Assembly (NCBI GenBank): GCA_964448725.1
Contig: CAYVAJ010000003.1
Coordinates: 17,867 to 81,866 of the forward strand
From: an uncultured Gammaproteobacteria bacterium
Lineage (GTDB): Bacteria > Patescibacteriota > Microgenomatia > Levybacterales > GWA1-39-11
Length of the DNA: 64,000 nucleotides
Direction: 5' to 3'
Position numbers and translations under genes: made by a program. Below are positions 3,011-45,878 of the stretch, one piece after another. Numbering within the stretch: the stretch's first letter is position 1; every line of letters starts with the position of its first letter. The notes under the pieces were generated by a model. It made no database searches. It was not told where the DNA came from and worked only from the letters and a program-made list of their open reading frames with translations.

Positions 3011-3274
3011 AGTAATTCACCTCCTTATTTTCCCGACATTGGCGGGATATATTTGATATTTCTCATATACTGCTAATATAGCTAACTCCATTATTAATAA
3101 TTTCTATGATAAGAAGGTACTCCTTTGCTACAAGATTATATATCTTGAAAGATAATACTAAATTGCTCCCTTTAGAAGTCCACTAAAAACCGGTAAGGAA
3201 CCTGCAAGAAACAAAGACAAAATAGGTACATACTAGTGTTGAGATTGTAAGAAGTTCTTGTTATAATCGGGTAC

Positions 3275-9817: not shown

Positions 9818-11274
9818 ACTGTTTTTATAGGAATACTCAAATAAAAGGTTGAACCTTTTCCAACTTCACTCTCAACCCAAATTTTTCCGTTATGTCTTTT
9901 AATAATTTCTTGTGATATATATAAACCCATGCCAAGTCCTGGATAGGTTTTCTCTTTTTTATCATATACTCGAAAGAACCGCTCAAAGACTTTTTCCTTA
10001 TATTCTTCTGGAATTCCCACACCATAATCACGGACTGAAATAATCGCTTGAGACATATCTTGTGCAAGTGACACTTCAATACGGTCAGAATTAGGAGAGT
10101 ACTTTATAGCATTTGTGATAAGGTTTATGAGCACTTGTCCGATTCTTTCCTTATCTCCTATTATCATATCATTAACTGTCCCTTTGCAAATTATTCTATG
10201 TCTTTCAGAGATTGCCTGCATATTTTCAACAACTTCATATGCTAACTGTCGAAGATCCATAGTATCCTGGTTAAATTCAATTTTCCCTGTTTGGATCCGA
10301 GAGACATCAAGCAAGTCATTTATCAAAAGAGTAAGTTTATCAATCTGTGCATCCATTTTAAATAAATATTTAACAGGAGTTTTATCTGGAAGCTGATTCA
10401 AGAGTTTTATCAATACTTGCGTAAAGACTTTAACACTTGTAACTGGAGTACGGAGCTCGTGACTTGCAATACTGATAAAATCATCCTTTCTTTTCTCGAC
10501 TTCCCGTCTTTCTGTCAAATCACGCGATATAACAGAAAAACCAGAAACGTTTTTTGCCTCATCAATAATAGGGGTTATGATAGTATTAGCCCAAAATTTA
10601 CTTCCATCTTTTTTTGTTCTCAATCCTTCAAATTCAAATCTTCCATCTTCCATTGCAGAAATTAAATAAGTCCATGGCTTGCCGATTTCAATTTCATTTG
10701 GACTAAAAAAATGAGAATAATGCTTTCCCAACACTTCTTGCTGTGTATATCCTTTTGTGTTTTCAGCCCCATGGTTCCAACTGGTAACATAACCTTCTTT
10801 ATCCAGTGTATAAATTGCATAATCCTTTACTGACTCAACCACCAAACGATACCGTTCTTCGCTTCTAATCAAATCATAATTATTTACTTCAACTTTTTTT
10901 AATGCAGTGTGCATAGTTTGGCTGAGAATACTTATCAACATTCCTTCAAGTGTAAAAATAGAGAGACTTATCAGATGAGAAGGATCTTTTACCGTGAATG
11001 TATATAATGGTGAAAGGAATAAAAAATACGCAAATATTCCTGATAATACAGTCGCATATAACCCAGTCCGAAATCCGCCAATCCATGCGCTCACCACAAC
11101 TGAGACAAAAAAGAGTAAATAGGGATATTCATTTCCGTGTACTGAAACTAGTAGTAATTTTGCGAGACATGCAAGAAGACAGACAAGAGTAGCAAGCGAA
11201 TAAAGCAATAAAGGGTCGTAGGTAAATGCACGGGTATTCCACCGTGGATGTAAACGAAGATGATTCCGAAACAT
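9814..11274 (-). CDS. membrane sensor histidine kinase (TM, PAS, HisKA, HATPase_c)
   Basis: Four N-terminal TM helices, PAS-like region, H-box SHELRTPV, G-box GLGMGLYIS. Confidence 0.85.
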   Translation of the reverse strand: MFRNHLRLHPRWNTRAFTYDPLLLYSLATLVCLLACLAKLLLVSVHGNEYPYLLFFVSVVVSAWIGGFRTGLYATVLSGIFAYFLFLSPLYTFTVKDPSHLISLSIFTLEGMLISILSQTMHTALKKVEVNNYDLIRSEERYRLVVESVKDYAIYTLDKEGYVTSWNHGAENTKGYTQQEVLGKHYSHFFSPNEIEIGKPWTYLISAMEDGRFEFEGLRTKKDGSKFWANTIITPIIDEAKNVSGFSVISRDLTERREVEKRKDDFISIASHELRTPVTSVKVFTQVLIKLLNQLPDKTPVKYLFKMDAQIDKLTLLINDLLDVSRIQTGKIEFNQDTMDLRQLAYEVVENMQAISERHRIICKGTVNDMIIGDKERIGQVLINLITNAIKYSPNSDRIEVSLAQDMSQAIISVRDYGVGIPEEYKEKVFERFFRVYDKKEKTYPGLGMGLYISQEIIKRHNGKIWVESEVGKGSTFYLSIPIKTV

Positions 11275-11351
11275 ATAAGCGCTACTTATTACTATAGAGC
11301 TCTCTATGTAATGAATCTTCGAAGATACGGTAAGAAATAGTTAAGAAGCAC

Positions 11352-12140
11352 TTATTGTTTTGCAATAAAACTGGTAAATAACATCGCACAATTATTTCCA
11401 GAACAACTCACACAGCTGTGGGTATGATTACCAAGAATTGCACTACGATGAATTGGCGAATTCATCCACCAATTTACTGCTTGTTGTTCTGTGTTTTGGG
11501 AAATCATGTTTTCAGTTATCCAATATGGAATTTCTGACTGTCTTCGTGCAATACCTGCATGCATATTACCGTTTACATATATTTCATTGTATAGCTCAGG
11601 AGCACGTGCATCTGCAATTGCACATACCCGATCATCTTTCGCAAAAGGTGCAAGACCATTTTGAGTACGGATTTGATTTACCATAGAGAAAATAACCTCA
11701 GGATTCAGTCCTCCTGTGCTCGAAGCCGGTGATACCTCAGTGTTGTACGCTACAGCAGCCTGAACTTCAACAGTAGGTGTTGGTACAGCAGCTGTTGGCG
11801 TAGGTGTCGCTTGTGCCACTGAATAACTATAAGAAAAGAGCGGTTTCTTATCAGTACCATCAGTATTTTGTGCTGGAGCAGCAAATAATTCATATGTCAT
11901 TTTTTGAGGAACTGAAGCAACAGATACAGGATCAGATATATTGCGCTTCTCAAGCGTACAAGTGCTGATGATTTTTCCACACCAAGGAGTCAAGAAAGGT
12001 CCGGAGCAGAGCGCGGCCTTAGCAGAGGAGTTTTTGTTGTTGTGGATTTTTTGCGTAGTAGCGGATGCAAAATTTTGGCTTCCGCTATAAAAAGTTAGGA
12101 TGATTGCAAGTATGCTTGCAATCACATGCTTTTTTAGCAT
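11352..12140 (-). CDS. secreted CAP/SCP (YkwD-like) domain protein
   Basis: Signal peptide; C-terminal CAP signature (...NGNMHAGIARRQ...WMNSPIHRSAILGNHTHSCVSCSG...). Confidence 0.65.
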   Translation of the reverse strand: MLKKHVIASILAIILTFYSGSQNFASATTQKIHNNKNSSAKAALCSGPFLTPWCGKIISTCTLEKRNISDPVSVASVPQKMTYELFAAPAQNTDGTDKKPLFSYSYSVAQATPTPTAAVPTPTVEVQAAVAYNTEVSPASSTGGLNPEVIFSMVNQIRTQNGLAPFAKDDRVCAIADARAPELYNEIYVNGNMHAGIARRQSEIPYWITENMISQNTEQQAVNWWMNSPIHRSAILGNHTHSCVSCSGNNCAMLFTSFIAKQ

Positions 12141-12288
12141 ATTTTTTAAGACTTGGGGATAATACCATGTGAAAATTGCTAAGTCAAGTTTTACAAAACG
12201 CTCAAGGCTAATTATGAGTATTTTTATTACTCAATATCACTTATTTATGCTCATTTGTGAAGATTATTGAAGAAATTGGTTAAAATCA

Positions 12289-13209
12289 TTATAACCACTT
12301 TTTATAGTACAAAAAGAGAAGAGCACCAAGAGAAGCAAGCACTGTTGTAAGAGTAATAATAGAGAATGCATAGGTATATTCATCAAAAGGAACATCTACA
12401 TTCATCCCAAACAAGCTTGCTACAATAGTCGGTATTGTTAAAATAACAGTAAGTGAAGTAAATAATTTAATAATTTTATTCAAATTGTTAGTAAAAATTA
12501 CCTGATATGAATCACGAATACTTCGAATACTGCGTAGATTTACCGAACAAATATCAGCAGACTGCTTGATACCAACAAGCAAGTCCTGCACTAAATCTCC
12601 ATCTTCTTCATATAGATGGATAAATTTTCCTGACCGAATTGCTTCAAATACATTATTCATCGGGACTAATGCAGTAATATACTGATTTAATACTTCTTCA
12701 ATCTGTGCAAGCCTGATAAAGTCCTGTGTATCAATCTTCGTAAAGTCACTCGTACTACGTGAGACACTAGTACGAAGTCGTTTGATCTGTACTGTATATT
12801 CATGTGCGAGACGCAGCAGCATCCTGAGTACTACTTTTGATTTTTGAGTAGTCGCAATTGAAGTCTTCTGATCTAATAGGTAATTAATAACTCTATTTTT
12901 ATCTTTTGAGATGGTGATTAGGTATTTATCAGTTATTACAATTGTCAGAAGTTCAGTATGAAGTTCTCCGACAGACGATTCTGGGGTTCTCACATACATG
13001 AGAATTCCTTCTTCCTGTCGTTCAAGACGAGGTACTTCATAGTTATCAAGACTATCCTGAAGATCATGCATATTAAGCCCAGTAAGTTCTGCTAATTTCG
13101 CAAGATCCTGTTCAGTAGTATTTTCCACGTTGATCCAACAGCCTGCACGGACTGTATCAATTTTCTTAAATTTTCGATCTTTTATTGTTTTGAAATATAC
13201 TTCGATCAT
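12289..13209 (-). CDS. corA: CorA-family magnesium/cobalt transporter
   Basis: Two C-terminal TM helices with the GMN motif (LFGMNVDVPF). Confidence 0.8.
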   Translation of the reverse strand: MIEVYFKTIKDRKFKKIDTVRAGCWINVENTTEQDLAKLAELTGLNMHDLQDSLDNYEVPRLERQEEGILMYVRTPESSVGELHTELLTIVITDKYLITISKDKNRVINYLLDQKTSIATTQKSKVVLRMLLRLAHEYTVQIKRLRTSVSRSTSDFTKIDTQDFIRLAQIEEVLNQYITALVPMNNVFEAIRSGKFIHLYEEDGDLVQDLLVGIKQSADICSVNLRSIRSIRDSYQVIFTNNLNKIIKLFTSLTVILTIPTIVASLFGMNVDVPFDEYTYAFSIITLTTVLASLGALLFLYYKKWL

Positions 13210-13286
13210 AGTATCCTCCTCAATTGATTATACTGCCCCAGGTCTTCATAAAACAAGCAATTAGATTTTTTTGCTATACTGTGGAC

Positions 13287-14006
13287 ATGGAATTAACAGT
13301 ACTCACATGGAATATTTGGGGAGGGAGAAACCGTAATGCTGTTATTCAGTTTTTACAACAAAATACATGGGATATTATTGCACTACAAGAAGTTACACAA
13401 AGAGAAATAAACGGAGATGAAATTAATGATGCAGAAGAATTAGCAAAGGCACTAGCGTGTGAGTATTATTATGAACGGTCTTTTAGAACCGATAGACATA
13501 CTCCTGTATATGACCTTGGTAATGCACTTCTAAGCAGACATCCGATCAAAGACCGCAATGTATATACGCTGAGCGATATGTCTTCCTATAAAAAAAATTC
13601 TACTACTGAGCCACGTAACGCAGTTGAGATAACAATCTCAGTCAACCAAAAAGATCTCCATATTTTATCAACTCATATTGGATATGATGATTTACTCGGA
13701 GAAGGAGAGCTGCAAAAAAAACAAATAGAAGAATTATTACAACATGTACCGAAAAAAAACACCATTCTAATGGGAGATTTTAACAGTACTCCAAATAGCT
13801 CGATAGTTAAAAGGGTGACTGACCATTTTGTTCATAGTGATACTGATTTGTCAGCAAATTCATGGACAAACCTAAAAAAAACTGATAACCCACAATATAG
13901 AATAGATTATATTTTTACCACACCAGATATTACTACCCATGAATTTCATCTTGGAAAATCTGATGCTTCTGATCATCTGCCCCTCATCGCACAGGTAAAT
14001 ATTTAA
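13287..14006 (+). CDS. endonuclease/exonuclease/phosphatase (EEP) family protein
   Basis: LTVLTWNIWGG, ALQEV, GDFNSTP, SDHLPL motifs; the ORF opens at 13224, the ATG at 13287 is preferred because it precedes the conserved N-terminus. Confidence 0.7.
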   Translation: MELTVLTWNIWGGRNRNAVIQFLQQNTWDIIALQEVTQREINGDEINDAEELAKALACEYYYERSFRTDRHTPVYDLGNALLSRHPIKDRNVYTLSDMSSYKKNSTTEPRNAVEITISVNQKDLHILSTHIGYDDLLGEGELQKKQIEELLQHVPKKNTILMGDFNSTPNSSIVKRVTDHFVHSDTDLSANSWTNLKKTDNPQYRIDYIFTTPDITTHEFHLGKSDASDHLPLIAQVNI

Positions 14007-14545
14007 TGTGTCCTGTGGAATTCTTCTGCTTTATCGATATCGCTACCAATATCTAATTCTTGTGGATGTTCTTCATCTTCATCAAGTCTCAGTCCTACAT
14101 TTTGCGCGTTAGCAAGTGTATCATCATCTGATGCTGGATCTGGATTTGTTGCATTCATTCCTTGTTCTCCCGCAACATGTGGAGGAGTCTCTTCATCAAG
14201 TGTTTTATTTCCTGTTGGTGTACTACCAGGTGTAGCTTGCGGGACTTCATCAGCTGCATCTGACATAAACTCATCTTTTTGCGATGGCATATCACGTGTT
14301 GCCTGATGTTTAAAGTCTGACATAGTCTGAGAAACAGGCTCTCTACTTGGAGGGGGAGTGTTAGGATCATTGGTGTCTTTGCTGACTCCTGTCATACCAG
14401 TAGTGTCATTCATCATTCCTTGGGCATTATCAGTGGGATCAAGTGGTGTCTGTCCTATCGGATGCTTACCAGGCATACTTGACTGATTTGGATTCTGAAT
14501 TGTTCTGTTCTTTCTTGTATCTGGCATAGTACTCATGGTAGTCAT
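14003..14545 (-). CDS. hypothetical low-complexity acidic P/T/D-rich protein
   Basis: Long ORF of biased composition; may be a disordered secreted or surface protein. Confidence 0.3.
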   Translation of the reverse strand: MTTMSTMPDTRKNRTIQNPNQSSMPGKHPIGQTPLDPTDNAQGMMNDTTGMTGVSKDTNDPNTPPPSREPVSQTMSDFKHQATRDMPSQKDEFMSDAADEVPQATPGSTPTGNKTLDEETPPHVAGEQGMNATNPDPASDDDTLANAQNVGLRLDEDEEHPQELDIGSDIDKAEEFHRTH

Positions 14546-14613
14546 TGAGCGTAAGGTTATAAGAAAATGCAGGTAAGAAGCGTGTAAACATATGATTGTT
14601 TACTTCTAGAGGG

Positions 14614-15549
14614 TTAAATGACAAACTCAAATACCAGGAACAAGAAATACATTAACAAGAGTATAATACCTTCCCCTCTGGTAATTTTCCTTTCTGATCT
14701 TGCAAAGAAATAAAAGAGGGTTAATCCAATACCAGTAAAGAGAAAAACTATGTGAAAATGGTTAACAGCTGATACAGGCTTTCGATATAAGAGTGTTAAT
14801 ATACCCATAAGCAACGCATTGACTGCAGCTGATCCAAGATAATCACCAAACGCTACATCTTTCTTTCCATGAAGAACTGAACGAAGTGCAATAGAAAGCT
14901 CAGGAAGATTAGTCCCAATAGATAATACAAGAAGACCAATATAAAACGGTGCAACATTAAATATTTCTGAAAAATACAAGGTCTTCTCGACAATCATATG
15001 ACTTGAGAGAAAGACAATTGCAATTCCTCCTATCACTTTCAGAAGATCAATAAATGAATATGATTTATTTGCGAGAGCATCTGCAGACGCATCAGAAAAT
15101 ATTCCTTTTTTTGACTGAATGATAATGAGTCCTGCAATATATGCTCCTATTAAAATAAATGCTTCAAATTGTGTAATCGTCTGATCAAGCATGAACATAG
15201 ACGGCAAAATAATAACCGAAAGTGCAGTCAGCATGCGTTTCTTATCAAAATCATGTGAAAGCTTTATTCCCTTTCCAAACACTGCAAGCAACGGAATGAC
15301 AAAAAGAAACATAACAACTATTCCTCCGAGCAAATTTCCTGCAAAAATCTCAGGGTCATTGTTATTAATAGCAGTTAATCCTAGTGCAAATTCAGGAATC
15401 GAGGTAAACAATCCAAGAACAAAGAAAGACACTGCAAAGGAAGAAAGTTTCATTTTCTTAGAAAGCTTATCTGCTGATGAGACAATCAATCCGCTTCCCA
15501 TCCAAATAAAGAAGAATGAAACAAAAAACAATGTAACATTATCAAGCAT
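14614..15549 (-). CDS. Ca2+/Na+ antiporter, CaCA family (YrbG-like)
   Basis: Two alpha-repeat motifs (GTSIPEFALGL, GTNLPELSIALRS); start placed at the ATG at 15549. Confidence 0.7.
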   Translation of the reverse strand: MLDNVTLFFVSFFFIWMGSGLIVSSADKLSKKMKLSSFAVSFFVLGLFTSIPEFALGLTAINNNDPEIFAGNLLGGIVVMFLFVIPLLAVFGKGIKLSHDFDKKRMLTALSVIILPSMFMLDQTITQFEAFILIGAYIAGLIIIQSKKGIFSDASADALANKSYSFIDLLKVIGGIAIVFLSSHMIVEKTLYFSEIFNVAPFYIGLLVLSIGTNLPELSIALRSVLHGKKDVAFGDYLGSAAVNALLMGILTLLYRKPVSAVNHFHIVFLFTGIGLTLFYFFARSERKITRGEGIILLLMYFLFLVFEFVI

Positions 15550-15632
15550 ATATTCATTGTAGACAAATACCGAGCAATTCCTCAAGTACTAATAATCTTG
15601 CAAAATATTTTTATCTGTTATACCATAGACAC

Positions 15633-16484
15633 TTGGGTTTTCTGAACGATATACAGCAACAATTTATTTCTTGGCTTATAACGAGCGGACCAGTAATACT
15701 TCTCATAGTTATTGTGCTTTTTATTGCACTTCGATTTGCCAAGGTTTTTATAGAGAAAATAATTAAACGAGCGATAAAATCAAAAAATCTCTCACGCTCG
15801 TCTGAAGAAAAAAGAGAGAAAACACTTATACGCATATTCGGTACTGCATTTAATGCATTCGTATTTATTGTTGCAGGAATGCTTCTATTATCGGAGATTG
15901 GTCTTGATATTGGACCACTTTTAGCAGCTGCCGGAGTAGCAGGCGTTGCAATTGGATTTGGTGCACAGTATCTTGTTCGTGATTTACTCACTGGATTTTT
16001 CATCATTATGGAAAATCAATATAGAGTAGGTGATGTTGCCTGTCTTGGTGACACTTGCGGATTTGTTGAAGATATTACTCCTCGAATTACAGTTCTGCGT
16101 GATCTTGACGGGACAGTTCATCACATTCCAAATGGAGAAATTACCAAAGCATCTAATCTCACAAAAACATATTCTAATGTGAATATCAATTTACGAGTTT
16201 CATATGCAGAAGATTTGGAGAGAGTGATAACAGTAGTAAATAGTGTTGGGGACAAGCTTGCTCGTGAGCAAAAATGGAAGGACAAAATTAGAGAAGCACC
16301 AAATTTTTTACGTGTTGATGACTTTGCTGAGTCAGCACTTATTATTAAAATTCTTGGAAAAACAGAACCACTCAAGCAATGGGAAGTAGCCGGTGAGTAC
16401 CGAAAACGACTCAAGATTGCATTTGATAAAGAAAAAATTGAGATTCCGCTTCCTCAACATGTCGTACATATGGCAAAATCCTAA
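15633..16484 (+). CDS. small-conductance mechanosensitive channel MscS
   Basis: TM3-like G/A-rich helix (AAAGVAGVAIGFGAQ), YRVGDVACLGD...GFVEDITPRITVLRDLDGTVHHIPNGEI beta-domain. Confidence 0.8.
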   Translation: MGFLNDIQQQFISWLITSGPVILLIVIVLFIALRFAKVFIEKIIKRAIKSKNLSRSSEEKREKTLIRIFGTAFNAFVFIVAGMLLLSEIGLDIGPLLAAAGVAGVAIGFGAQYLVRDLLTGFFIIMENQYRVGDVACLGDTCGFVEDITPRITVLRDLDGTVHHIPNGEITKASNLTKTYSNVNINLRVSYAEDLERVITVVNSVGDKLAREQKWKDKIREAPNFLRVDDFAESALIIKILGKTEPLKQWEVAGEYRKRLKIAFDKEKIEIPLPQHVVHMAKS

Positions 16485-16506
16485 TGTTTGTCGATTGCGT
16501 GTATTA

Positions 16507-17274
16507 TCATCTGAAGAGTGTTCCCACAAAATAGGCAATAACAGCAGATATTCCACCGAGTACCACTATCTCACCTACTGATCGTGCGATTGCCTCTTTC
16601 GTTACTCTATATCTCAGTAACCCAAGCATCGCAAGCGCAATGAATGTTGCAATGCTTGATATATAAAAAATATTTGGATCTTCGCGAAGCAGTAGATACG
16701 GAATTATAGGAATAGAACCAAAAAACATAAATGAAAGAGTTGTTGAAAGACCAGTTAATACAGGTTTGTCTCCTTCTGGGCTTGTCATTTCAAGTTCATG
16801 ATTCATCATAAATTCCAGCCAATATTCTTCATTAGTCGCATAAATTTGTGCTACTTCACGAGCCTGTTTGTCTGAAAATCCTTTTTGTTTTAATATAAAT
16901 ATTGTTTCAGCGATCTCTGAATTTTTATTCTTTTTTATTTCTAACCGTTCTTTTTCTTTTTCCCGCCGATATACATCCTGATCTGCCCGGACAGATAAAA
17001 CATTTCCGAGCCCCATTGATACCGCATCAGCAAAGAGGTTAGCAAAGCCAAAAAGTAGCACTGCTGTAACTGATAGTGCAGCAATCGTACTGTCTCCACT
17101 TTGTGCTCCTGTAAATCCAGCTACGACTGCAAAAGTTGTCACAATTCCATCAACCCCTCCGTACACTATTTCTTTTAAATATGTTGAGAATGCAGAGAGT
17201 CTGTGTTCACGATTTACGTGCTGCTCAAACTCTTCAGTGGTAAATTCAGGGACCATACCTAATGAGTATATCAA
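16507..17274 (-). CDS. VIT1/CCC1 family iron/manganese transporter
   Basis: VYGGVDGIVTTFAVVAGFTGA signature plus C-terminal TM cluster. Confidence 0.75.
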   Translation of the reverse strand: MIYSLGMVPEFTTEEFEQHVNREHRLSAFSTYLKEIVYGGVDGIVTTFAVVAGFTGAQSGDSTIAALSVTAVLLFGFANLFADAVSMGLGNVLSVRADQDVYRREKEKERLEIKKNKNSEIAETIFILKQKGFSDKQAREVAQIYATNEEYWLEFMMNHELEMTSPEGDKPVLTGLSTTLSFMFFGSIPIIPYLLLREDPNIFYISSIATFIALAMLGLLRYRVTKEAIARSVGEIVVLGGISAVIAYFVGTLFR

Positions 17275-17352
17275 ATTAAAAATATTTTATTATATAGGTA
17301 AAACAGCCTCTATATCCCAAAAATAGTCCTTCATGGTTCAATATGCGATATC

Positions 17353-18366
17353 ATGATAAAATACAACAATATGCTTATTGATACAGTCACAATTACACTC
17401 AAAGCAGGCAAAGGAGGAGATGGATCAGTCCATTTCTATCGTTCAGGACATAATCCAAAAGGCGGACCAGATGGAGGAAATGGCGGAAAAGGCGGAGATA
17501 TCTATATCACTGCAACCCATAACGTATCTGATCTTTCGGAATTTACCTATAAAAAAGAAATTAAAGCATTTGATGGTACTGACGGAAAAGGTAAAAAAAT
17601 GCACGGAAAAAATGGCGATGATGTTACTATTAAAATTCCACTTGGTACAACAATAACTGATCTTACAACGGGTAAAGTAATTGAACTTATACACGAAAAC
17701 AAGCCATTCCGAATCGCAAAAGGAGGAGCAGGCGGTAGAGGAAATGATGAATTTAAATCTGCAACAAATCGACAGCCGCAGTATGCAGAGCTAGGAAGGC
17801 CAGGCGAGGAGAAAGAAGTAAAACTTGTTCTCAAACTTATCGCACATATTGGACTTATCGGCAAACCAAATGCAGGAAAAAGTAGTTTGCTTGCAGCACT
17901 CACTAATGCAGAGCCTAAAATTGGTGCTTATCCTTTTACCACAATTGAACCAAATCTTGGAGTATTACAAGCATCAAAAAATATGACCGAGAGAAAATAT
18001 ATTATTGCAGACATTCCAGGACTTATTGAAGGTGCACATACTGGAAGAGGACTGGGGATTAAATTTTTGCAACATATTGAAAAGACACAGTTACTCGTAC
18101 ATTGTATAGACATTACTGAACCTGATCCAGTTGAAGCATATAGAACCATCAGAGAAGAATTTGAAGAATATAATAATGGTATCTTGCTTGAAAAAGAAGA
18201 AATTATTGTACTAACCAAGACAGATTTAGTACAAACCAATGTATATGATAAAAAAATCTCCACATTAAAGAAAATCGGAAAACAGATTTACACAGTATCG
18301 ACCTATGATCAGGAAAGCCTCTCAATCCTCACAAATGTTTTTAGACAAAAACTTTCAAAACCCTAA
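17353..18366 (+). CDS. obg: GTPase Obg/CgtA
   Basis: Obg fold motif LKAGKGGDGSVHF; G1 GKPNAGKSSLL; DIPGLIEGA. The stop codon lies inside the first CCCTAAA repeat unit. Confidence 0.9.
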   Translation: MIKYNNMLIDTVTITLKAGKGGDGSVHFYRSGHNPKGGPDGGNGGKGGDIYITATHNVSDLSEFTYKKEIKAFDGTDGKGKKMHGKNGDDVTIKIPLGTTITDLTTGKVIELIHENKPFRIAKGGAGGRGNDEFKSATNRQPQYAELGRPGEEKEVKLVLKLIAHIGLIGKPNAGKSSLLAALTNAEPKIGAYPFTTIEPNLGVLQASKNMTERKYIIADIPGLIEGAHTGRGLGIKFLQHIEKTQLLVHCIDITEPDPVEAYRTIREEFEEYNNGILLEKEEIIVLTKTDLVQTNVYDKKISTLKKIGKQIYTVSTYDQESLSILTNVFRQKLSKP

Positions 18367-18416
18367 ACCCTAAACCCTAAACCCTAAACCCTAAACCCTA
18401 AACCCTAAACCCTATA
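18361..18416. repeat. tandem heptamer (CCCTAAA)x7 plus one CCCTATA unit (plant-type telomeric repeat, TTTAGGG on the other strand)
   Basis: Read directly; 7 perfect units and 1 degenerate unit; overlaps the obg stop codon. Confidence 0.95.
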
Positions 18417-18419
18417 ACA

Positions 18420-18428
18420 AATGCTATA
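18420..18428 (+). promoter_or_regulatory. extended -10 element TGcTATAAT upstream of ruvC
   Basis: TGCTATAAT 13 nt before the ruvC ATG; the -35 position falls in the heptamer repeats. Confidence 0.4.
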
Positions 18429-18441
18429 ATGAAGCTATTCT

Positions 18442-18936
18442 ATGCGTATTATCGGAATCGATCCTGGAATTGCACGAGTAGGATGGGGAGTAATTGAACA
18501 ACGTACCAATACCATAAAACCATTGGCATTCGACTGTCTTGAAACTTCAAAATCAGACACAACCCCAACAAGACTTCTTTCCATATATAATTTTTTATCC
18601 CAGCTTTTTACAGAATATCGCCCTGATGCACTCGCAGTAGAAGAACTATTCTTTAATTCTAATGCCAAAACTGCGTTGATAGTCGGACATGCCCGAGGTG
18701 TGGTGTTGCTTGCATCAGCAGTTCATCAGATACCAGTTATCTCGTATACTCCATTACAAGTAAAAATGGCCTTAACTGGATATGGACGCGCAGATAAATC
18801 ACAAATTGGACATATGGTAAAAACCTTGCTATATTTGAAAGCAATTCCGAAGCCTGATGATACGGCAGATGCCTTGGCAATTGCACTCACGCACGCATTC
18901 AGCAACAAGTTGCAAAACTTAAAACTGAAAACCTAA
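18442..18936 (+). CDS. ruvC: Holliday junction resolvase RuvC
   Basis: MRIIGIDPGIARVGWGVIE N-terminus and catalytic acidic residues typical of RuvC. Confidence 0.9.
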   Translation: MRIIGIDPGIARVGWGVIEQRTNTIKPLAFDCLETSKSDTTPTRLLSIYNFLSQLFTEYRPDALAVEELFFNSNAKTALIVGHARGVVLLASAVHQIPVISYTPLQVKMALTGYGRADKSQIGHMVKTLLYLKAIPKPDDTADALAIALTHAFSNKLQNLKLKT

Positions 18937-18965
18937 AGCTATAAGCTATAAACTAATTTTAGAAT

Positions 18966-19541
18966 ATGATTGGATTTTTACGAGGACAAGTACTTTTCCG
19001 CGATGATCCGTACGTCTATATAGATGTACAAGGAGTAGGGTATAAAGTGCTTGCAACACGAGAGGTTATTACTGCAAGTAATGATCCAGAAAAAACAATA
19101 CTTATATATACCTATACCCACGTAAGAGAAGATACCTTAGAATTATTTGGATTTTTACACACAGAAGACCTCAAGTTATTTGAAAAATTTATTGCTATTT
19201 CTGGTATCGGTCCCAAAACTGCTGTACAGATTTTTTCATTTGGGAGCAGACGTGAGATTGTGGAAGCAATTATCGCAGGGAATGTTAATTTCTTTACTGC
19301 AGTTCCTCGTTTAGGAAGAAAAAATGCACAAAAAATCATCTTAGAGCTCAAAAGTAAATTTGCACAAGGCGGTGATGAACTTGCACTGCTTGATGATGCA
19401 AGCATTCATCATGATGTTGTCACTGCATTACAAAGTATGGGATTTTCCCACGGTGAGATTCAAACTGCATTAAAATCTGTTCCGCAAGATATATCGGTAG
19501 ATGAAACACTCAAACATGTACTCAAGAGTTTAGGAAAGTAA
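18966..19541 (+). CDS. ruvA: Holliday junction branch-migration protein RuvA
   Basis: MIGFLRG...; HhH motifs (ISGIGPKTA); C-terminal domain III. Confidence 0.9.
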   Translation: MIGFLRGQVLFRDDPYVYIDVQGVGYKVLATREVITASNDPEKTILIYTYTHVREDTLELFGFLHTEDLKLFEKFIAISGIGPKTAVQIFSFGSRREIVEAIIAGNVNFFTAVPRLGRKNAQKIILELKSKFAQGGDELALLDDASIHHDVVTALQSMGFSHGEIQTALKSVPQDISVDETLKHVLKSLGK

Positions 19542-19850
19542 TTCTGCGAAATAAGGTGTAAAGGTATAGGGTTTGTAAAGTTATAAAGTTTGTAAAGTTC
19601 ATAAAGTCGTTTTAGTTATAAAGTTTGTAAAGTTCATAAAGTTATAAAGTAAGAGGAGTTAGTATTGATTATCAATAATAAATAATCAATACCACGGTAT
19701 AAGAATTAAAGTTTCTAAAGTTCATAAAGTATAAGGAGTTATTATTGTAATCAATAATAAATAATCAATAATAAGTAATCAATATCTTTGAAAATAATAA
19801 GTAATAAATAATAAATAATAAGTAATAAATAATAAATAGCCTCTGGCCTA
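19542..19850. repeat. AT-rich repetitive intergenic region between convergent genes
   Basis: Repeated units GTTTGTAAAGTTCATAAAGT (x3-4), AGGAGTTA..ATCAATAATAAATAATCAATA (x2) and AATAAGTAATAAATAATAAAT (x2). Confidence 0.8.
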
Positions 19851-21617
19851 GTATATCTCAAAATTTGCGAGGAGCTTTTTATTGCCTTCGATTTGATAGT
19901 TGAGCAGATCTGAGTAGATACCCTTCTTTTTAGAGAGCTCTTGTGGACTGCCATAATCAACTACTTTTCCACTATCAATTACTATAACTTTGTCTACATT
20001 TTGGATAGTTGAGAATCTATGCGCGATAATAATTACTAATTTATCTTTCATGAGAGTCTCAAGTGCGTCTTGTACATCTTTCTCGCTCTTTGCATCCAAA
20101 GAGCTAGTTGCTTCATCCATAATCAAGATTGGTGCATTTTTAAGAATTGCACGTGCTATTTGAATACGCTGTTTTTGTCCTCCAGATAATTTGACTCCTC
20201 GTTCGCCAACAAGACTGTTAATTCCTTTTGGAAGTTTTTGCACAAATTCATATGCATTTGCTTTTTTCAATGCATCAATTACTGCATCATCGCTTGCTTG
20301 GTGTGTCCCATACATTACGTTCTCACGGACAGTTGAGGAAAAGAGTTCATTTTCTTGAAAAACGAGAGAAATGTTATTACGTATATAATGATGGTCAAGA
20401 TCAGTATAGTCGACTCCATTAAGAAGAATTTTCCCTTCAGTTGGTGCATAAAACTTTAGAATCATATTGATTATTGTTGATTTTCCAGCACCACTGTGCC
20501 CAACAAGTGCGACTGTTTCATGCGGCTTAATAGTAAATGATACATTGGTAAGTACTCTTTCATTTTTCTCATACGCAAATGACACCTTATCAAATGTGAG
20601 TGTCGGATCTTCTATTCGTTTTGTATCAACTGGCTTTGTGTAGTCCTCTGCAGACTCAAGATTTAAAACTTCAAAATATTCTTTTGATCCACTCTCAGCT
20701 CGTTGTATGTTGGTGAGAATAAATGACATAGCAAAAAGCGGCCGACGAGATTGGGCTACAAGCTGTAATATAAGTACCATTTCACCAATCGTAAGATCTC
20801 CCTGGAATGTGTTGTAGAATACTACAATATTAATAATCAAAAGTACGATGTTGAGAGAGAGTCCACGGTAAAAATCAAATAAATGAAATGTCTGACTTTG
20901 TTTCGCATAAATCTTGTTAATATTTTCATAATTAGTGACAATCTTATTAAATTCATTTCGTTCAGTTATAAAGCTTTTAACCAATCTAATATTTCCGATT
21001 ACCTCCTGAATTCTTCCTCGTGATGCATCTTCAATTTTATTTTTCTTTACTTCTTCCTGACCCCATTTTTTAGTAGAGTAGTATGAAATAGAGATATATA
21101 TAGGAAAGAGAAGAAACGTGACAATTGCAATTGGAATATTATAGTAAGCAAGTACTGCAATGGTGAATATTGCTTGCAGAAGAGACGGCAGTGCAAAATT
21201 AGTCATTGTCTGGATAAAACTTTGAACTGAGAAAATACCACGGCTCAGTTGATTTATCATTTTTCCAGAAATCTCAGAATCAAAATAATTGAGCGGAAGG
21301 CGCAGGACTTTATCATAGTATTTTTCAGTTAAGAACTTTCCGAGCTTAGCTGAAAAATGGTCACCGAGGCGGTTGCTTACCGTCTGTGTAATAAGCGCAA
21401 GTAAGCTCACGACAAAGGCAGCAATAATCAATGTAATAAGAGTATTGATATCTCCTTGTCCATCCTGTACCCGTGCTACGATCTGATCGACAATACTTTT
21501 TGAGATAATTGGAGTGACTAATTCGAGTCCTGCGCCAAGAACAATTAACGCTGCAATGATGCTAATAAGACCGTGCAGAGGTTTTGCTAATTTTATGATA
21601 TTTCCTATATTCTTCAT
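19848..21617 (-). CDS. ABC transporter, fused permease/ATPase (MsbA-like exporter)
   Basis: Six TM helices; Walker A GHSGAGKST; signature LSGGQKQRIQIARA; start set at MKNIGN (ATG 21617) after AGGAAAGGA. Confidence 0.85.
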   Translation of the reverse strand: MKNIGNIIKLAKPLHGLISIIAALIVLGAGLELVTPIISKSIVDQIVARVQDGQGDINTLITLIIAAFVVSLLALITQTVSNRLGDHFSAKLGKFLTEKYYDKVLRLPLNYFDSEISGKMINQLSRGIFSVQSFIQTMTNFALPSLLQAIFTIAVLAYYNIPIAIVTFLLFPIYISISYYSTKKWGQEEVKKNKIEDASRGRIQEVIGNIRLVKSFITERNEFNKIVTNYENINKIYAKQSQTFHLFDFYRGLSLNIVLLIINIVVFYNTFQGDLTIGEMVLILQLVAQSRRPLFAMSFILTNIQRAESGSKEYFEVLNLESAEDYTKPVDTKRIEDPTLTFDKVSFAYEKNERVLTNVSFTIKPHETVALVGHSGAGKSTIINMILKFYAPTEGKILLNGVDYTDLDHHYIRNNISLVFQENELFSSTVRENVMYGTHQASDDAVIDALKKANAYEFVQKLPKGINSLVGERGVKLSGGQKQRIQIARAILKNAPILIMDEATSSLDAKSEKDVQDALETLMKDKLVIIIAHRFSTIQNVDKVIVIDSGKVVDYGSPQELSKKKGIYSDLLNYQIEGNKKLLANFEIY

Positions 21618-21668
21618 TCCTTTCCTATTATATCCCTCTACTACCAGTCTGACCAGTAGAAATCTTAC

Positions 21669-22463
21669 TTGATTTTTATTCAGATGCTTGCTTATTATAA
21701 ATATATGCAAAATCTTTTAAACAAAAATCTCATTGTTACCTATGCAGCACTCGTTCTTATTACACTTTTGGCGCTGGTTCTCGTGAAAGAGCTGAATATC
21801 TCCTATCCTGTACGGGTCACTACAACTCAAGCATCTGATCTTTCAGTTGTAGGAGAAGGAAAGGTAGAAGTAGTTCCTGACCGTGCGAGTCTTGAAGCAG
21901 GGATTCTCGTTGCCAATGCTGCATCAATTGAGGCTGCACAACAAGAAATTGATGAAAAAAACAATGCAATTGTGAGTGCACTTGGAGAATTAGGTATTCC
22001 AAAGGAAGATATTAAAACATCAAATTATTCAATAAATCCAAATCAGGATTTTAATCCAGGGATAGCAGGAAGAATTACCGGGTATAATGGCAATGTAACG
22101 GTTAGTATTACTGTGCGGCAGATAGATCTTGTCCCACAAGTTACTCAAGCAGTTACTACAGCTGGAGCAAATCAGGTATATAACGTGAGTTATTCAGTTG
22201 AAAACCCTGAGAAATTCCGGGAAGAAGCACGAAATAAAGCAATCGAAAATGCTAAAGAACAAGCACAAAATTTGGCAAATTCTTTAGGTATTAGACTTGG
22301 AAGAGTTGTGAATATAGTTGAGTCTACTCCAGCAAACGGCCCATTACCATTTGAACGAGCTTTGATGAGCAGAGATGCAATGGGTGGTGCAAATGCTCCA
22401 GTACTTGAACCAGGAACACAGGAAATTACCTCAGTAGTAACGCTCTATTTTGAAAAAAAATAA
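21669..22463 (+). CDS. SIMPL (DUF541) domain periplasmic protein
   Basis: N-terminal anchor; SVVGEGKVEVVPDRA...IKTSNYSINP...ITGYNGNVTVSITVR...GANQV... match the SIMPL family pattern. Confidence 0.8.
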   Translation: MIFIQMLAYYKYMQNLLNKNLIVTYAALVLITLLALVLVKELNISYPVRVTTTQASDLSVVGEGKVEVVPDRASLEAGILVANAASIEAAQQEIDEKNNAIVSALGELGIPKEDIKTSNYSINPNQDFNPGIAGRITGYNGNVTVSITVRQIDLVPQVTQAVTTAGANQVYNVSYSVENPEKFREEARNKAIENAKEQAQNLANSLGIRLGRVVNIVESTPANGPLPFERALMSRDAMGGANAPVLEPGTQEITSVVTLYFEKK

Positions 22464-23030
22464 CTAGATACCGTCTAGATTAAGCTCTTCATTAATAAAT
22501 TTACGAAATACTCCAAATTCACTGTCTTTTGAGGCCATTGGTTCCAAGGGAGCGGAAGATTGTTCACTTTTAATATTTTTAAGTTGTATTCCCATTCCCA
22601 TAAGATGAGCTATTGCATTTTTTTCATACTCAAATTCATAATTTACTTGATCTAGATCTTTGAGAAATCCTAGTTTGGTAATTTTTTTAAAAACATCATC
22701 ATGCACCATACGAGCATCTGCAGTATTTCCGATTTCGTATCCTGACATAATGAGTGTCCCAAATGCCACACTGATATGTGGCAAGGGAGTATCTGGATTT
22801 GTATGATTACTTACTCTCCAAGCAAGTGCGAAATTTTTTACAATATCAATATCCCACCCAGTTCCTTGTTCTTTTTCGATCTCATGGTACATATCAATAA
22901 TCTTGCTGGCTGCATCCGAATCCCAATTATCAATATTAAAATCGAAATTATCGCTGAGAAAATACTTGAGAACAGATGAACGCTGCACTATCTCTTCTTT
23001 TTTGTGATAATCAAAATATTCTTTTGACAT
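22464..23030 (-). CDS. hypothetical protein (188 aa)
   Basis: ORF only. Confidence 0.3.
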   Translation of the reverse strand: MSKEYFDYHKKEEIVQRSSVLKYFLSDNFDFNIDNWDSDAASKIIDMYHEIEKEQGTGWDIDIVKNFALAWRVSNHTNPDTPLPHISVAFGTLIMSGYEIGNTADARMVHDDVFKKITKLGFLKDLDQVNYEFEYEKNAIAHLMGMGIQLKNIKSEQSSAPLEPMASKDSEFGVFRKFINEELNLDGI

Positions 23031-27726: not shown

Positions 27727-27850
27727 CTACTAACGAATAGCCAATATCCAACAATCAATAACCAATTCCTGCTTTCCGTATTCTTACAGACTCTTAACCC
27801 CTGTCTTATTGGTACTCACTATAGTAGTACTATAACGATAAATTCTTAGC

Positions 27851-39600: not shown

Positions 39601-39635
39601 AAATAATCAATCATCAATAATAAATAGTCAATAAA
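39601..39635 (+). repeat. leader motif A copy (rplF)
   Basis: AAATAATCAATCATCAATAATAAATAGTCAATAAA 5 nt before the ATG; GTGACGATTGAG directly after the rpsH stop. Confidence 0.8.
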
Positions 39636-40653: not shown

Positions 40654-41112
40654 ATGGATAATAATCAATCAAAATACGAAGAAAGAATAGTACAAATTAA
40701 CCGGGTTTCAAAGAAAACCAAAGGTGGAAATAAGGTGAGATTTGCTGCTTTGGTTGTTGTAGGAGACAAGCAAGGTAAAGTTGGAGTGGGACTTGGAAAA
40801 TCAGCAGATGTAGCAAGTGCAATTATTAAAGCAGTTGCATATGCAAAAAATAGACTTATTGATGTACCGATTGTGAATGAAACTATTCCTCATAAGATTC
40901 AAATTAAAGAGGGAGCTGCAGTTATTATGTTAAAACCTGCACCACAAGGAACTGGTATTATCGCAGGTGGAGCTGTGAGAAGTGTAGTAGAAGCAGCAGG
41001 AATCCGAAATATTTCATCCAAAATACTTGGAACATCTAATAAAGCAAGTAATGTATATGCAACATTTGAAGCATTGCGAGCACTTGCAAAACAAAATGGA
41101 GGAATAAAATAA
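40654..41112 (+). CDS. rpsE: 30S ribosomal protein S5
   Basis: RIVQINRVSKKTKGGNKVRFAALVVVGD..GKVGVGLGKS... Confidence 0.95.
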   Translation: MDNNQSKYEERIVQINRVSKKTKGGNKVRFAALVVVGDKQGKVGVGLGKSADVASAIIKAVAYAKNRLIDVPIVNETIPHKIQIKEGAAVIMLKPAPQGTGIIAGGAVRSVVEAAGIRNISSKILGTSNKASNVYATFEALRALAKQNGGIK

Positions 41113-41540
41113 TGGAATTACATAAAAGTCCAAAATTAATTGCAGCAAGTGATAAACGGCTTGGTCGTGGTCATGGGTCAGGGCGAGGAAAGACATCTGG
41201 TCGTGGAACCAAAGGACAAAAAGCACGAGGAGCTATTAGCTTATCATTTGAAGGTGGAGCACTCCCGCTTATCAAACGTATGCCTTTTCTGAGAGGAAAA
41301 GGGCGAAATAGTGGAATTAAAGTACCAGCGGTTGAGATTACATTATCAGACTTAGATAAATTGCAAGCAAAGAGTACAGTAACCAAAGATTTTCTTATAG
41401 AAAAAGGCGTTATTGAAAAAAATACAAAGCGCGTCAAAGTTATTGCAACAGGAACAATTGAAACAGCGGTAACAGTACAGATACCTGCTTCAAAAGGTGC
41501 TATTGCAGCAATTGAAAAAGCAGGCGGAAAAGTAGAATAG
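41112..41540 (+). CDS. rplO: 50S ribosomal protein L15 (follows S5 directly; no L30 gene)
   Basis: LGRGHGSGRGKTSGRGTKGQKARG signature; start overlaps the rpsE stop (TAATG). Confidence 0.93.
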   Translation: MELHKSPKLIAASDKRLGRGHGSGRGKTSGRGTKGQKARGAISLSFEGGALPLIKRMPFLRGKGRNSGIKVPAVEITLSDLDKLQAKSTVTKDFLIEKGVIEKNTKRVKVIATGTIETAVTVQIPASKGAIAAIEKAGGKVE

Positions 41541-41578
41541 ATTGGTGATTGACTAGTTATAATTGACGATTAAACTGT

Positions 41579-41612
41579 AATAGTCAATAATCAATAATAA
41601 ATAGTCAATAAA
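41579..41612 (+). repeat. leader motif A copy (secY), 34/34 identical to 35666..35699
   Basis: AATAGTCAATAATCAATAATAAATAGTCAATAAA; preceded by TTGACTAG..TTGACGATT elements after the rplO stop. Confidence 0.9.
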
Positions 41613-41617
41613 AATAT

Positions 41618-42901
41618 ATGGCCTCATTTTTTAGTCTCTTTAAGAATAGCGTGAAGGATCGGGAGATTCGGCGAAAACTTGCTATCACTGCTCTTCTCTT
41701 TCTGGTTTTTCGTTTTTTTGCACATATTCCCGTTTTCGGAGTAAATATTACACAGCTGCAATCTCTTTTTGCACAAAATCAATTTTTAGGTTTACTTGAT
41801 ATTTTCTCTGGCGGCACAATCTCAAACTTTTCAGTTCTCGCATTAGGATTAGGTCCTTACATTTATGCCTCAATTGTGCTGCAGCTTTTGACAGTTGTAT
41901 ATCCTAAATTGGAAGCTCTCTCAAAAGAGGGTGAGTATGGTAGACAAAAAATTAATCAATATACCCGTTACTTGACTGTCCCATTAGCACTTATCCAAGG
42001 ATTTGGAATATATGCGCTATTACGATCTCAAAATCTCATTGGTAATTTAGGTATTGTTGATCTCGCATCATTTATTATTACGCTTGTTGCGGGAACATTA
42101 TTTGTTATGTGGATTGGTGAGCTGCTCTCTGAACAAGGGATTGGAAATGGAATATCATTACTCATCTTTGCTGGTATTGTAAATAGAATTCCTGTAATTG
42201 CAGGACAGACACTAAGCACGCTCGGACAGGCAGATATTATGAATATTCTATTATTCCTAGGAATTGGAGTAGCTATGGTTGCAGCAGTTGTAATGATTAA
42301 TGAAGCAGTTCGCCGTGTTCCTATATTTTATGCTCGCCGTGTTCGTGGATCGCAATCTGTATCTGCACAAAGTACTCATCTACCGCTTAAATTAAATCAA
42401 GCAGGTGTTATTCCGATTATTTTTGCAGTATCATTTGTTTTGCTTCCATCAATGATGGGAAATTATTTTTTGGCTTCAAGTAATCAAACAATGAATGAAA
42501 TTGGACGCTTTTTTGCTACCTATTTCAGCCCACAGCATCCAGTATATAATATTATTTATTTTGTGATGGTAGTCGGGTTTACATACCTCTATACTGCAAT
42601 TATTTTCAACCCTCAGAAGATCTCAGAAGACCTTCAAAAACAGGGAGGATTTATTCCTGGAATAAGACCAGGTAAGCCAACTGCTTCATTTTTAAATACG
42701 ATTGTCACGAGAATCACTCTTGCTGGTGCACTATTTTTGGGTATAATTGCTGTGTTGCCTAATTTACTTGGGTTACTCACAAATACACAAAGTTTGATTA
42801 TTGGTGGTACAAGTATTTTGATTGTAGTATCAGTGGTGATTGAGACTATTAAAATCTTAGAAGTACAGCGGACGACACGAAGTTATGATCAATTCCAATA
42901 A
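41618..42901 (+). CDS. secY: preprotein translocase subunit SecY
   Basis: 10-TM protein with SecY signatures, in the canonical position after rplO. Confidence 0.95.
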
Positions 42902-45420: not shown

Positions 45421-45810
45421 ATGCGTTTAGTAGGAGTAAATTTACCAGATAACAAGCGGATTGATATAGCACTTACCTATATTTATGGGGTAGGGCGTAC
45501 TAATGTGTACGAAATATTAAAAAAAGCAAATATTGATCCAGCTGTACGGAGTCATACGCTTAATGAAGAAGAATTAGGAAGATTACAAAAAGCACTTGAG
45601 CCTTACAAAATTGAAGGTGATCTTCGTGCTGAAATATTTGAAAATACCAAAAGACTTCGTGAAATCTCTAGTTATCGGGGAATAAGACATACTCGTGGTC
45701 TTCCGGCACATGGACAGCGGACTCGTTCTAATGCACGTACAAAGCGAGGAAAGAGAGTAACTATTGGAGCTATCCGAAAAGAAGTAGCAGAGAGAATGGG
45801 GGTAAAATAA
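45421..45810 (+). CDS. rpsM: 30S ribosomal protein S13
   Basis: MRLVGVNLPDNKRIDIALTYIYGVG... Confidence 0.95.
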   Translation: MRLVGVNLPDNKRIDIALTYIYGVGRTNVYEILKKANIDPAVRSHTLNEEELGRLQKALEPYKIEGDLRAEIFENTKRLREISSYRGIRHTRGLPAHGQRTRSNARTKRGKRVTIGAIRKEVAERMGVK

Positions 45811-45878
45811 ATTGAGAATTGAAAATGGAGAATTGAAAAATAATTCTCAAATCTCAACTCTCAATTATCAATTTTAAT

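Follow-up and report, generated by a model that had tools for sequence, protein, structure and literature searches.

The heptanucleotide array at the obg–ruvC boundary

The window, i.e., the whole stretch of DNA analyzed here, comprises 64,000 nt of contig CAYVAJ010000003.1 (assembly GCA_964448725.1, positions 17,867 to 81,866 of the forward strand), and the subject of this work is a perfect heptanucleotide tandem array, (CCCTAAA)n, which is located between the obg and ruvC genes and whose minus strand reads (TTTAGGG)n, with eight GGG tracts. In our judgment, the array is probably a long simple-sequence repeat (LSSR) of local origin, generated by slippage and near-neutral, with a merely coincidental match to the plant telomere repeat. 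The features of the locus, in positions of the window, are as follows:

17353..18366, plus strand: obg (GTPase Obg/CgtA; Pfam GTP1_OBG, 3e-52, and MMR_HSR1)
18358..18416, plus strand: heptanucleotide tandem array (about 8.4 units in the AAACCCT register; 7 units and one CCCTATA in the CCCTAAA register)
18364..18366, plus strand: obg stop codon TAA, inside repeat unit 1
18422..18430, plus strand: putative extended -10 element TGCTATAAT for ruvC, 11 nt 5' of its ATG
18442..18936, plus strand: ruvC (Holliday junction resolvase; Pfam RuvC, 1.8e-49)
18966..19541, plus strand: ruvA (Pfam RuvA_N, HHH_5, and RuvA_C)

Reading of the sequence placed seven perfect CCCTAAA units at 18361-18409 and a single CCCTATA unit at 18410-18416, exactly as the original prediction had it, and Tandem Repeats Finder (TRF) called the same tract (18358-18414, period 7, 8.1 copies, 100% matches) with a score of 114, the maximum for the window. 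The predicted overlap with the end of obg was confirmed as well: the first repeat unit supplies the last two codons of this gene (AAA CCC, encoding K and P) together with its stop TAA, and 21 nt of the array are enough for TAA to occur in each of the three forward frames. The tract, with 43% GC in a genome of 36%, ends 26 nt before the ruvC ATG. An extended -10 element for ruvC does follow it, although the gap between the two is 5 nt (ACAAA) and not 4 nt, as given earlier.

The two-unit CCCTAAA pattern, searched with up to two mismatches, matched seven times where 0.31 matches are expected, a count that no shuffle out of 100 attained; the array thus consists of longer-than-chance head-to-tail copies of a unit in the 5-11 nt range, as is characteristic of heptanucleotide LSSRs. 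The search for further CCCTAAA arrays that had been proposed was run within the 64-kb window, and neither pattern nor heptamer searches found a second CCCTAAA/TTTAGGG array there. The single CCCTAAA heptamer occurs in two copies outside the array, with 6.4 expected in total, so it is not enriched elsewhere in the window. No terminal inverted repeats or target duplication were seen on reading the flanks of the array, no repeat search having been run on this region.

The site in related genomes

The gene order VIT1 (minus strand) followed by obg, ruvC, and ruvA (plus strand) was kept in every related contig fetched, and ruvB is the next gene after ruvA in most relatives. The sequence upstream of the ruvC -10 element is not conserved among relatives, and the distance from the obg stop codon to this element is as follows:

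L002: 4 nt, no repeat there
L018: 6 nt, nothing within the spacer
L017: about 19 nt, no repeat there
L025: 19 nt, no repeat there
L019: 21 nt, no repeat there
Window: 55 nt, (CCCTAAA) array
L013: 86 nt, heptamer units and a hairpin

Arrays of other units were found at the same site. In L016 (RuvC 86% identical), a perfect (ACCACTA) array of at least 4.3 units occupies the orthologous position and ends at a shared flank (TAACAGATGC versus TAACAAATGC in the window), L013 carries AATTAAG units with an inverted copy, and in L018 (AAGCTAG) x4.3 forms the 3' end of obg. The CCCTAAA unit has its own counterpart in relatives. L051 (Obg 77% and RuvC 78% identity) has two CCCTA copies just before the -10 element, and TRF found no tandem array anywhere in its contig; over the 25 nt that lead up to TGCTATAAT, the window reads AAACCCTAAACCCTATAACAAATGC and L051 reads AAACCCTATCCCCTAAATTAAATGC, which agree at 20 of the 25 aligned positions. 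Where the window has the array, this relative, at about 78% protein identity, thus reads AAACCCTATCCCCTAAAT.

Within the species, L050, whose ruvC is 99.4% identical to that of the window at the nucleotide level, covers the entire spacer and reads ...CTTTCCAACTCTAAAACCTAAAACAAATGCTATAAT, i.e., its spacer (...TTTCCAACTCTAAAACCTAAAACAAATGCTATAAT) holds two imperfect units (CTCTAAA ACCTAAA) versus eight in the window. Contigs L049 (RuvC protein the same as in L050) and L001 (ruvC 100% identical) begin inside a long array and reproduce the array-ruvC junction exactly, from other sequencing runs (SRR23814904 and SRR7082966, respectively). De Bruijn assembly with k=31, as in Logan, breaks where a tandem repeat exceeds k. 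As these two Logan contigs start inside the array, the tract should be at least about 38 nt long in their reads, and their exact unit counts are open-ended; they also exemplify how an assembly with short k is broken by arrays of this kind. The species showed only two allele classes (2 units and at least 5.4 units), without a graded series. Unit number among strains, which the original prediction had suggested counting, therefore varies, since L050 has two imperfect units against the long array of the window, L001, and L049. Its term microsatellite also names the correct class, with a tract whose length differs among near-identical strains.

Judged by these contigs, tract length is polymorphic within the species, and the CCCTAAA unit appears to be an old local sequence that was expanded in some of its strains. 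Because homologous unexpanded sequence occupies the same position in L050 and L051, the unit is local and not eukaryotic.

An exact look-up of the Obg protein (in its 337-aa and 331-aa forms) found no contig in independent assemblies, so the left (obg-array) junction is not visible there. The JGI metagenome scan with Obg gave a best match of 49% identity and no close relative, and in the GTDB scan L002 was the only close genome among the matches listed. The nearest named RuvC and Obg homologs belong to Candidatus Levybacteria and "Patescibacteria group" bacteria. In the ribosomal protein operon of the window (40654-41540), S5 is directly followed by L15, with no L30 between them. This arrangement is reportedly a hallmark of the candidate phyla radiation (CPR), and is said to have been recognized as such by Brown and colleagues in 2015. 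The host is to be placed within Patescibacteria (CPR).

Several further observations were made on the related contigs. L002 (CAZIAP010000001.1) has Obg and RuvC proteins 77-78% identical to those of the window and the order VIT1|obg-ruvC-ruvA-ruvB, as in Levybacteria-like contigs; its label, "uncultured Gammaproteobacteria bacterium", is probably wrong. In L051 (3008-3013), ruvC begins with ATA CGA instead of ATG CGA and the called gene has only 143 aa, which may reflect a sequencing error, a pseudogene, or a non-canonical start. The spacer between ruvC and ruvA is 29 nt long in the window (18937-18965, with AAGCTAT repeats) versus 86 nt in L049 (553-638) and L050 (570-655), where it holds a long inverted repeat, ATTGTTAC...GTAACAAT, in strains with a 99.4% identical ruvC. 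Intergenic spacers thus appear, from the compared sequences, to turn over much faster than genes.

Period-7 repeats in the intergenic DNA

TRF reported 22 period-7 rows in the window against 1.5 expected from first-order Markov simulations, which makes seven by far the commonest period, and five period-14 rows against 0.35 expected (all period-7 statistics for this genome cover the 64-kb window). About 17 of the 22 period-7 rows are intergenic, intergenic DNA being about 13% of the window, and the intergenic autocorrelation calculated without the focal array gave z = 9.1 at lag 7, 7.5 at lag 14, and 5.4 at lag 21. The bias is shared by the clade: the lag-7 z value was 6.2 in the close relatives (L002, L013, L016, L018, and L019) and -0.5 in more distant Patescibacteria and other phyla. 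Should it stem from a property of the machinery for replication or repair, the small genomes of CPR bacteria could offer a simple system for tracing its cause. The genes next to heptamer arrays are of all sorts, those for ribosomal proteins among them, and the following intergenic arrays were distinguished by TRF:

19748..19838, strand unspecified: period-7 array, TAATAAA x13, 76% matches
27731-27766, 32894-32928, 35629-35698, 39602-39634, 41579-41611, and 45810-45873: further heptamer arrays

The other arrays of the window are degenerate (69-92% matches), A/T-rich, and G-poor, with units such as AATAATC, TCAATAA, TAATAAA, TAACCAA, and AATTGAG, and those of the TCAATAA/AATAGTC type end 3-8 nt before start codons. 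Three things alone set the CCCTAAA array apart from them: it is perfect, it is relatively GC-rich, and it has no inverted partner. It had been described as unexpected in a bacterial intergenic region, a view that does not hold: in this genome such arrays are the norm, and they form a described bacterial class (PMC4679880, PMC4692102).

A 22-nt heptamer-built motif, TCAATAATAAATAGTCAATAAA, was observed in three exact and three near copies, all on the plus strand, with 0 expected (32908-32929, 35678-35699, 39614-39635, 41591-41612, 19672-19693, and 19751-19772). Four copies end 3-8 nt before starts in the ribosomal-protein operon, namely those of L4, L6, SecY, and the gene at 35706, and the motif was not found in any fetched relative. 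An inverted TTGACGATTGAC-type arm often precedes it and creates predicted hairpins (RNA fold z = -2.6 at 41541-41620), and a separate heptamer hairpin (AATTGAG/AATTCTC) is located between the genes for S13 and S11 (z = -4.3).

The ruvC promoter and the flanking genes

Within the putative promoter of ruvC, TGCTATAATGAAGCTA is unchanged in eight aligned relatives, and more distant relatives have TGGTATACT or TGTTATAAT at an equal distance from the ATG. Because of this invariance and of the equivalents in distant relatives, ruvC is predicted to be driven by its own extended -10 promoter, with a leader of about 5 nt or less, and the position of the -10 element implies an mRNA that would be leaderless or near-leaderless. 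The same architecture, with TGNTANNNT 6-12 nt 5' of the ATG, is present at many other genes of the window, and in obg itself the ATG at 17371 is preceded by TGATAAAAT at a distance of 8 nt. Elements of the extended -10 type (TGNTATAAT-like) without a Shine-Dalgarno sequence were noted, e.g., at 3259, 9430 (minus strand), 17273 (minus strand), 17354, 26602 (minus strand), 49499, 54329 (minus strand), and 54352, which suggests that leaderless or near-leaderless mRNAs may be widespread in this genome.

The true start of obg is probably the ATG at 17371, not 17353; the database copy of the protein (P0122) has 331 aa. At the C-terminus, Obg reads RQKLSKP* in the window versus ...KQKLS* in L002, L019, and L025, and the latter form appears to be the ancestral one. 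A RuvC protein identical to that of the window is present in an independent Logan contig. A terminator scan found no intrinsic terminator between obg and ruvC, and the RNA fold across the locus reached only -1.2 kcal/mol over 106 nt (z = -0.15). Readings of the array as a terminator, hairpin, or cruciform were rejected, Watson-Crick folding of the RNA and of both DNA strands having given no structure.

Proposed origin of the array

We propose that a two-unit seed (AAACCCTA..CCCTAAA), already located just 5' of the -10 element in relatives, would have grown to about eight perfect units in some strains and stayed at two imperfect units in another. The expansion would have proceeded by replication slippage, a step that we infer, in what is probably the sole stretch free of constraint from the last conserved codon of obg to the extended -10 element of ruvC, and in a clade whose intergenic DNA is pervaded by 7-nt repeats. 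The array would then be a passive, unstable spacer, which may have put about 50 bp between the ruvC promoter and the end of obg and which would supply the last two codons and the stop of that gene. Most likely it has no dedicated function, and we likewise infer its near-neutrality; next to the promoter it is dispensable, since L002 and L018 have only 4-6 nt from the end of obg to the same -10 element. The likeness of TTTAGGG to the plant (Arabidopsis-type) telomere, pointed out in the original prediction, is correct as to the identity of the unit, and the match itself is a coincidence of the seed sequence.

Some points weigh against this explanation. The perfect homogeneity of seven units, together with the perfect array of L016, means that the tract could be kept by selection, and the units of the window (TAAACCC) and of the sister lineage (TAACCAC) agree at five of seven positions in register with the shared flank. 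The array is, moreover, the only canonical G-quadruplex (G4) motif in the 64 kb, in the position and on the strand that Rehm et al. found to be preferred, the preference of the clade for 7 nt is not accounted for by this explanation, and the tract comparisons were made at the level of assembled contigs. Perfect arrays of different units at orthologous sites and their presence or absence within one species would also be accounted for by an active, lineage-specific process that seeds, expands, and homogenizes 7-nt arrays at gene boundaries, the arrays then being used (A-rich ones for ribosome landing or hairpin punctuation, G4-capable ones for tuning the ruvCA promoter or obg read-through). We regard such a process as improbable.

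Comparison with known heptanucleotide repeats

Heptanucleotides are reported as the most abundant simple repeats of 5-11 nt in prokaryotes, and an interaction with the polymerase has been proposed to favor 7-nt slippage (Mrazek, Guo & Shah 2007, as summarized in PMC4679880 and PMC4692102). The array resembles the LSSRs of that study, as far as these summaries describe them, in being a perfect 7-nt intergenic array in a heptamer-dominated genome that varies among close relatives, presumably by polymerase slippage. In contrast to them, units here differ from array to array, with no single genome-wide unit. Three marks of this class are present, namely tandem copies beyond chance, a genome-wide period bias, and unstable length between relatives.

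G4-forming heptamer simple sequence repeats (SSRs) were described by Rehm et al. 2015 (PMC4692102), with the units GGGAATC in Xanthomonas and GGGGA(C/T)T in Nostoc, and in Xanthomonas species the intergenic ones vary in length and sequence at orthologous sites (PMC4692102). The array shares with these SSRs a G3-containing 7-nt unit in at least four copies, a location between co-oriented open reading frames (ORFs) with the G-rich strand antisense and less than 50 bp upstream, an overlap with a stop codon, and a length and sequence that change from one close relative to another at a given intergenic site. It differs in its unit (GGGTTTA) and in having eight units versus the four-unit mode of the Xanthomonas and Nostoc genomes. 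Motif and placement thus agree, whereas the GGGTTTA unit does not appear abundant in the genome as far as the 64 kb go, which hold one G-rich array, the others being A/T-rich and G-poor.

The TAACTGA heptamer repeats of Beggiatoaceae, Cyanobacteria, and Bacteroidetes lie just 5' of start codons, including those of ribosomal protein operons (MacGregor 2015, PMC4679880). The other arrays of the window are similar, since they are abundant in intergenic DNA and in ribosomal-protein operons where Shine-Dalgarno sequences are rare, and they do occupy the position before the start codon. The CCCTAAA array is unlike the TAACTGA repeats, as it lies 26 nt from the ATG with the -10 element intervening, i.e., not at a ribosome-binding position, and its unit is unrelated.

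Among SSR contingency loci, the heptamers of H. influenzae hmw are 7-bp promoter repeats that tune expression. With these loci (H. influenzae hmw 7-bp, N. meningitidis nadA TAAA, and M. catarrhalis uspA2 AGAT repeats) the array has in common a perfect promoter-side repeat whose length differs among strains; the differences are a housekeeping neighbor, a -35-independent promoter downstream, knowledge that here comes from the sequence, and an uncultured host that is not a pathogen known for phase variation. With plant telomeres and interstitial telomeric (TTTAGGG)n sequences it shares the identical unit. It differs from them in having eight units internal to a bacterial contig, a local two-unit seed, and no eukaryotic flanks.

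No description of heptamer-rich intergenic DNA in a CPR/Patescibacteria lineage was found in the literature searched. This lineage shares the heptamer-rich intergenic architecture of Xanthomonas, cyanobacteria, and Beggiatoaceae, with strain-level turnover at a defined site, and what deserves attention in this context is that differently sequenced perfect arrays recur at one orthologous site and that presence and absence occur among near-identical strains.

Alternative explanations

An artifact or foreign DNA, i.e., a chimeric join via eukaryotic telomere reads or horizontal transfer of plant or algal telomeric DNA, would account for the exact identity of the unit with the plant-type telomere repeat. 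When the literature was searched for bacterial genomes with TTTAGGG arrays, most of the papers returned dealt with plant or algal genome assemblies, and such DNA does occur in metagenomes, as (CCCTAAA) runs of at least four units were found in 22 IMG/VR contigs, including metagenome-assembled genomes (MAGs) of giant viruses. (These viral contigs, L027-L048, hold internal exact runs and have no bearing on the obg-ruvC locus.) However, the array lies between orthologous neighbors, obg and ruvC adjoining in every relative, and is therefore not a chimeric join. GC content is uniform at about 36% (range 34-39%) across the window, the array-ruvC junction recurs in two further assemblies (L001 and L049), and the unit is homologous to the unexpanded sequence of L050 and L051. 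No subtelomeric or other foreign sequence lies beside the array, which is inside the contig, among bacterial genes, and not at the end of a molecule. Thus, the suspected chimerism with plant or algal DNA is effectively refuted, as both flanks are syntenic, GC is uniform, independent assemblies carry the junction with ruvC, and relatives hold the seed sequence, and we consider a foreign origin extremely improbable. A bacterial MAG with a perfect plant-telomere repeat is not necessarily contaminated or misassembled.

The possible functions of the tract are best weighed against local, near-neutral slippage. The suggested G-quadruplex motif on the minus strand is borne out in silico: it is canonical and the only (G3N1-7)4 motif in the window, with eight G-tracts, 4-nt loops, and five overlapping matches where 0.02 are expected. 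Under the G-quadruplex option of ViennaRNA (RNA parameters, minus strand as RNA), two tandem quadruplexes were predicted at -21 kcal/mol, versus 0 for Watson-Crick pairing. Plant telomere repeats form G4 in vitro. A functional non-B DNA, with (GGGTTTA)8 on the obg/ruvC template strand and an i-motif-prone C strand opposite, might accordingly tune the ruvC promoter or block read-through from obg. The G-rich strand is antisense and 26 bp 5' of the ORF, the preferred placement of the Xanthomonas and Nostoc G4 heptamer SSRs, and G4s activate or inhibit E. coli promoters depending on their position, although Rehm et al. did not succeed in demonstrating any regulatory role (PMC4692102). At this site, however, G4 potential is not conserved, as the unit of L016 (TTAGTGG on the G-rich strand) and those of L013 and L018 have no GGG runs, L050, from the same species, has two units only, L002, L017, L019, and L025 have no array, and the other approximately 20 heptamer arrays of the window are G-poor and A/T-rich. 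We therefore hold a G4-based function to be unlikely.

Gain or loss of 7-bp units could also switch or tune ruvCA as a contingency (phase-variable) locus, giving subpopulations that differ in recombination and repair. In favor of this are a perfect tract that abuts a promoter and differs between strains with 99.4% identical ruvC, as well as 7-bp promoter repeats that are reported to tune expression elsewhere (the hmw heptamers of H. influenzae, the repeats of PMC12721329, and the TTTTGAT repeats of V. cholerae). But the array is upstream of an extended -10 element with no recognizable -35, not between promoter elements, in a 5' untranslated region, or in an ORF. As the obg stop lies in unit 1, unit changes should leave the Obg protein unaltered, and as the tract is upstream of a promoter without a -35 in any allele, they should leave promoter spacing unaltered; neither the stop codon nor the promoter core would be altered, and no effect on frame or spacing is predicted. 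The phase-variable spacer originally proposed, at least as a spacing-type switch upstream of this -35-independent promoter, is hence unlikely. Furthermore, ruvC is a housekeeping gene, neither it nor its neighbors obg and ruvA belong to surface, host-interaction, or restriction-modification functions, only two allele classes without a graded series were seen, and heptamer arrays lie beside all kinds of genes, so that phase variation at this locus is quite improbable. An UP element for ruvCA, proposed along with it, is unlikely too, given a GC content above that of the genome and relatives that function with obg ending a few nucleotides from the -10 element; this candidate was rejected, as a UP element would be an A/T-rich tract at about -40 to -60 conserved with its promoter and the region 5' of the invariant TGCTATAATGAAGCTA is not conserved. 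A role at the RNA level would rest on the obg read-through transcript, in which (CCCUAAA)8 could be a rut-like Rho loading site or a standby/S1 platform for the Shine-Dalgarno-less ruvC. It forms a 59-nt G-free tract with 43% C in RNA predicted to be fully unstructured, other arrays of the window end just before start codons, and binding of S1 or Csp was proposed by MacGregor for the TAACTGA repeats upstream of start codons (PMC4679880). Nevertheless, the promoter of ruvC lies between the array and the ATG, so that the main ruvC mRNA would not contain the array, and there are relatives without any such tract, which leaves this role very improbable.

Further observations around the locus

The cumulative GC skew has a broad minimum at about 11000-23000 (lowest at 18953), and there genes switch from mostly minus to mostly plus strand, as in an origin-like region. 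A role of the array in a replication origin is not supported, since DnaA boxes were neither enriched nor clustered (15 scattered one-mismatch matches against 21 expected). The 300-nt spacer 3' of ruvA (19542-19847) is packed with repeats, i.e., families of 29-38-nt direct repeats, the 17-mer TGTAAAGGTATAAAGTT in five copies, and the TAATAAA x13 array. Beyond it, ruvA is followed in the window by a convergent ABC transporter, whereas ruvB follows directly in relatives, and ruvB has thus been displaced.

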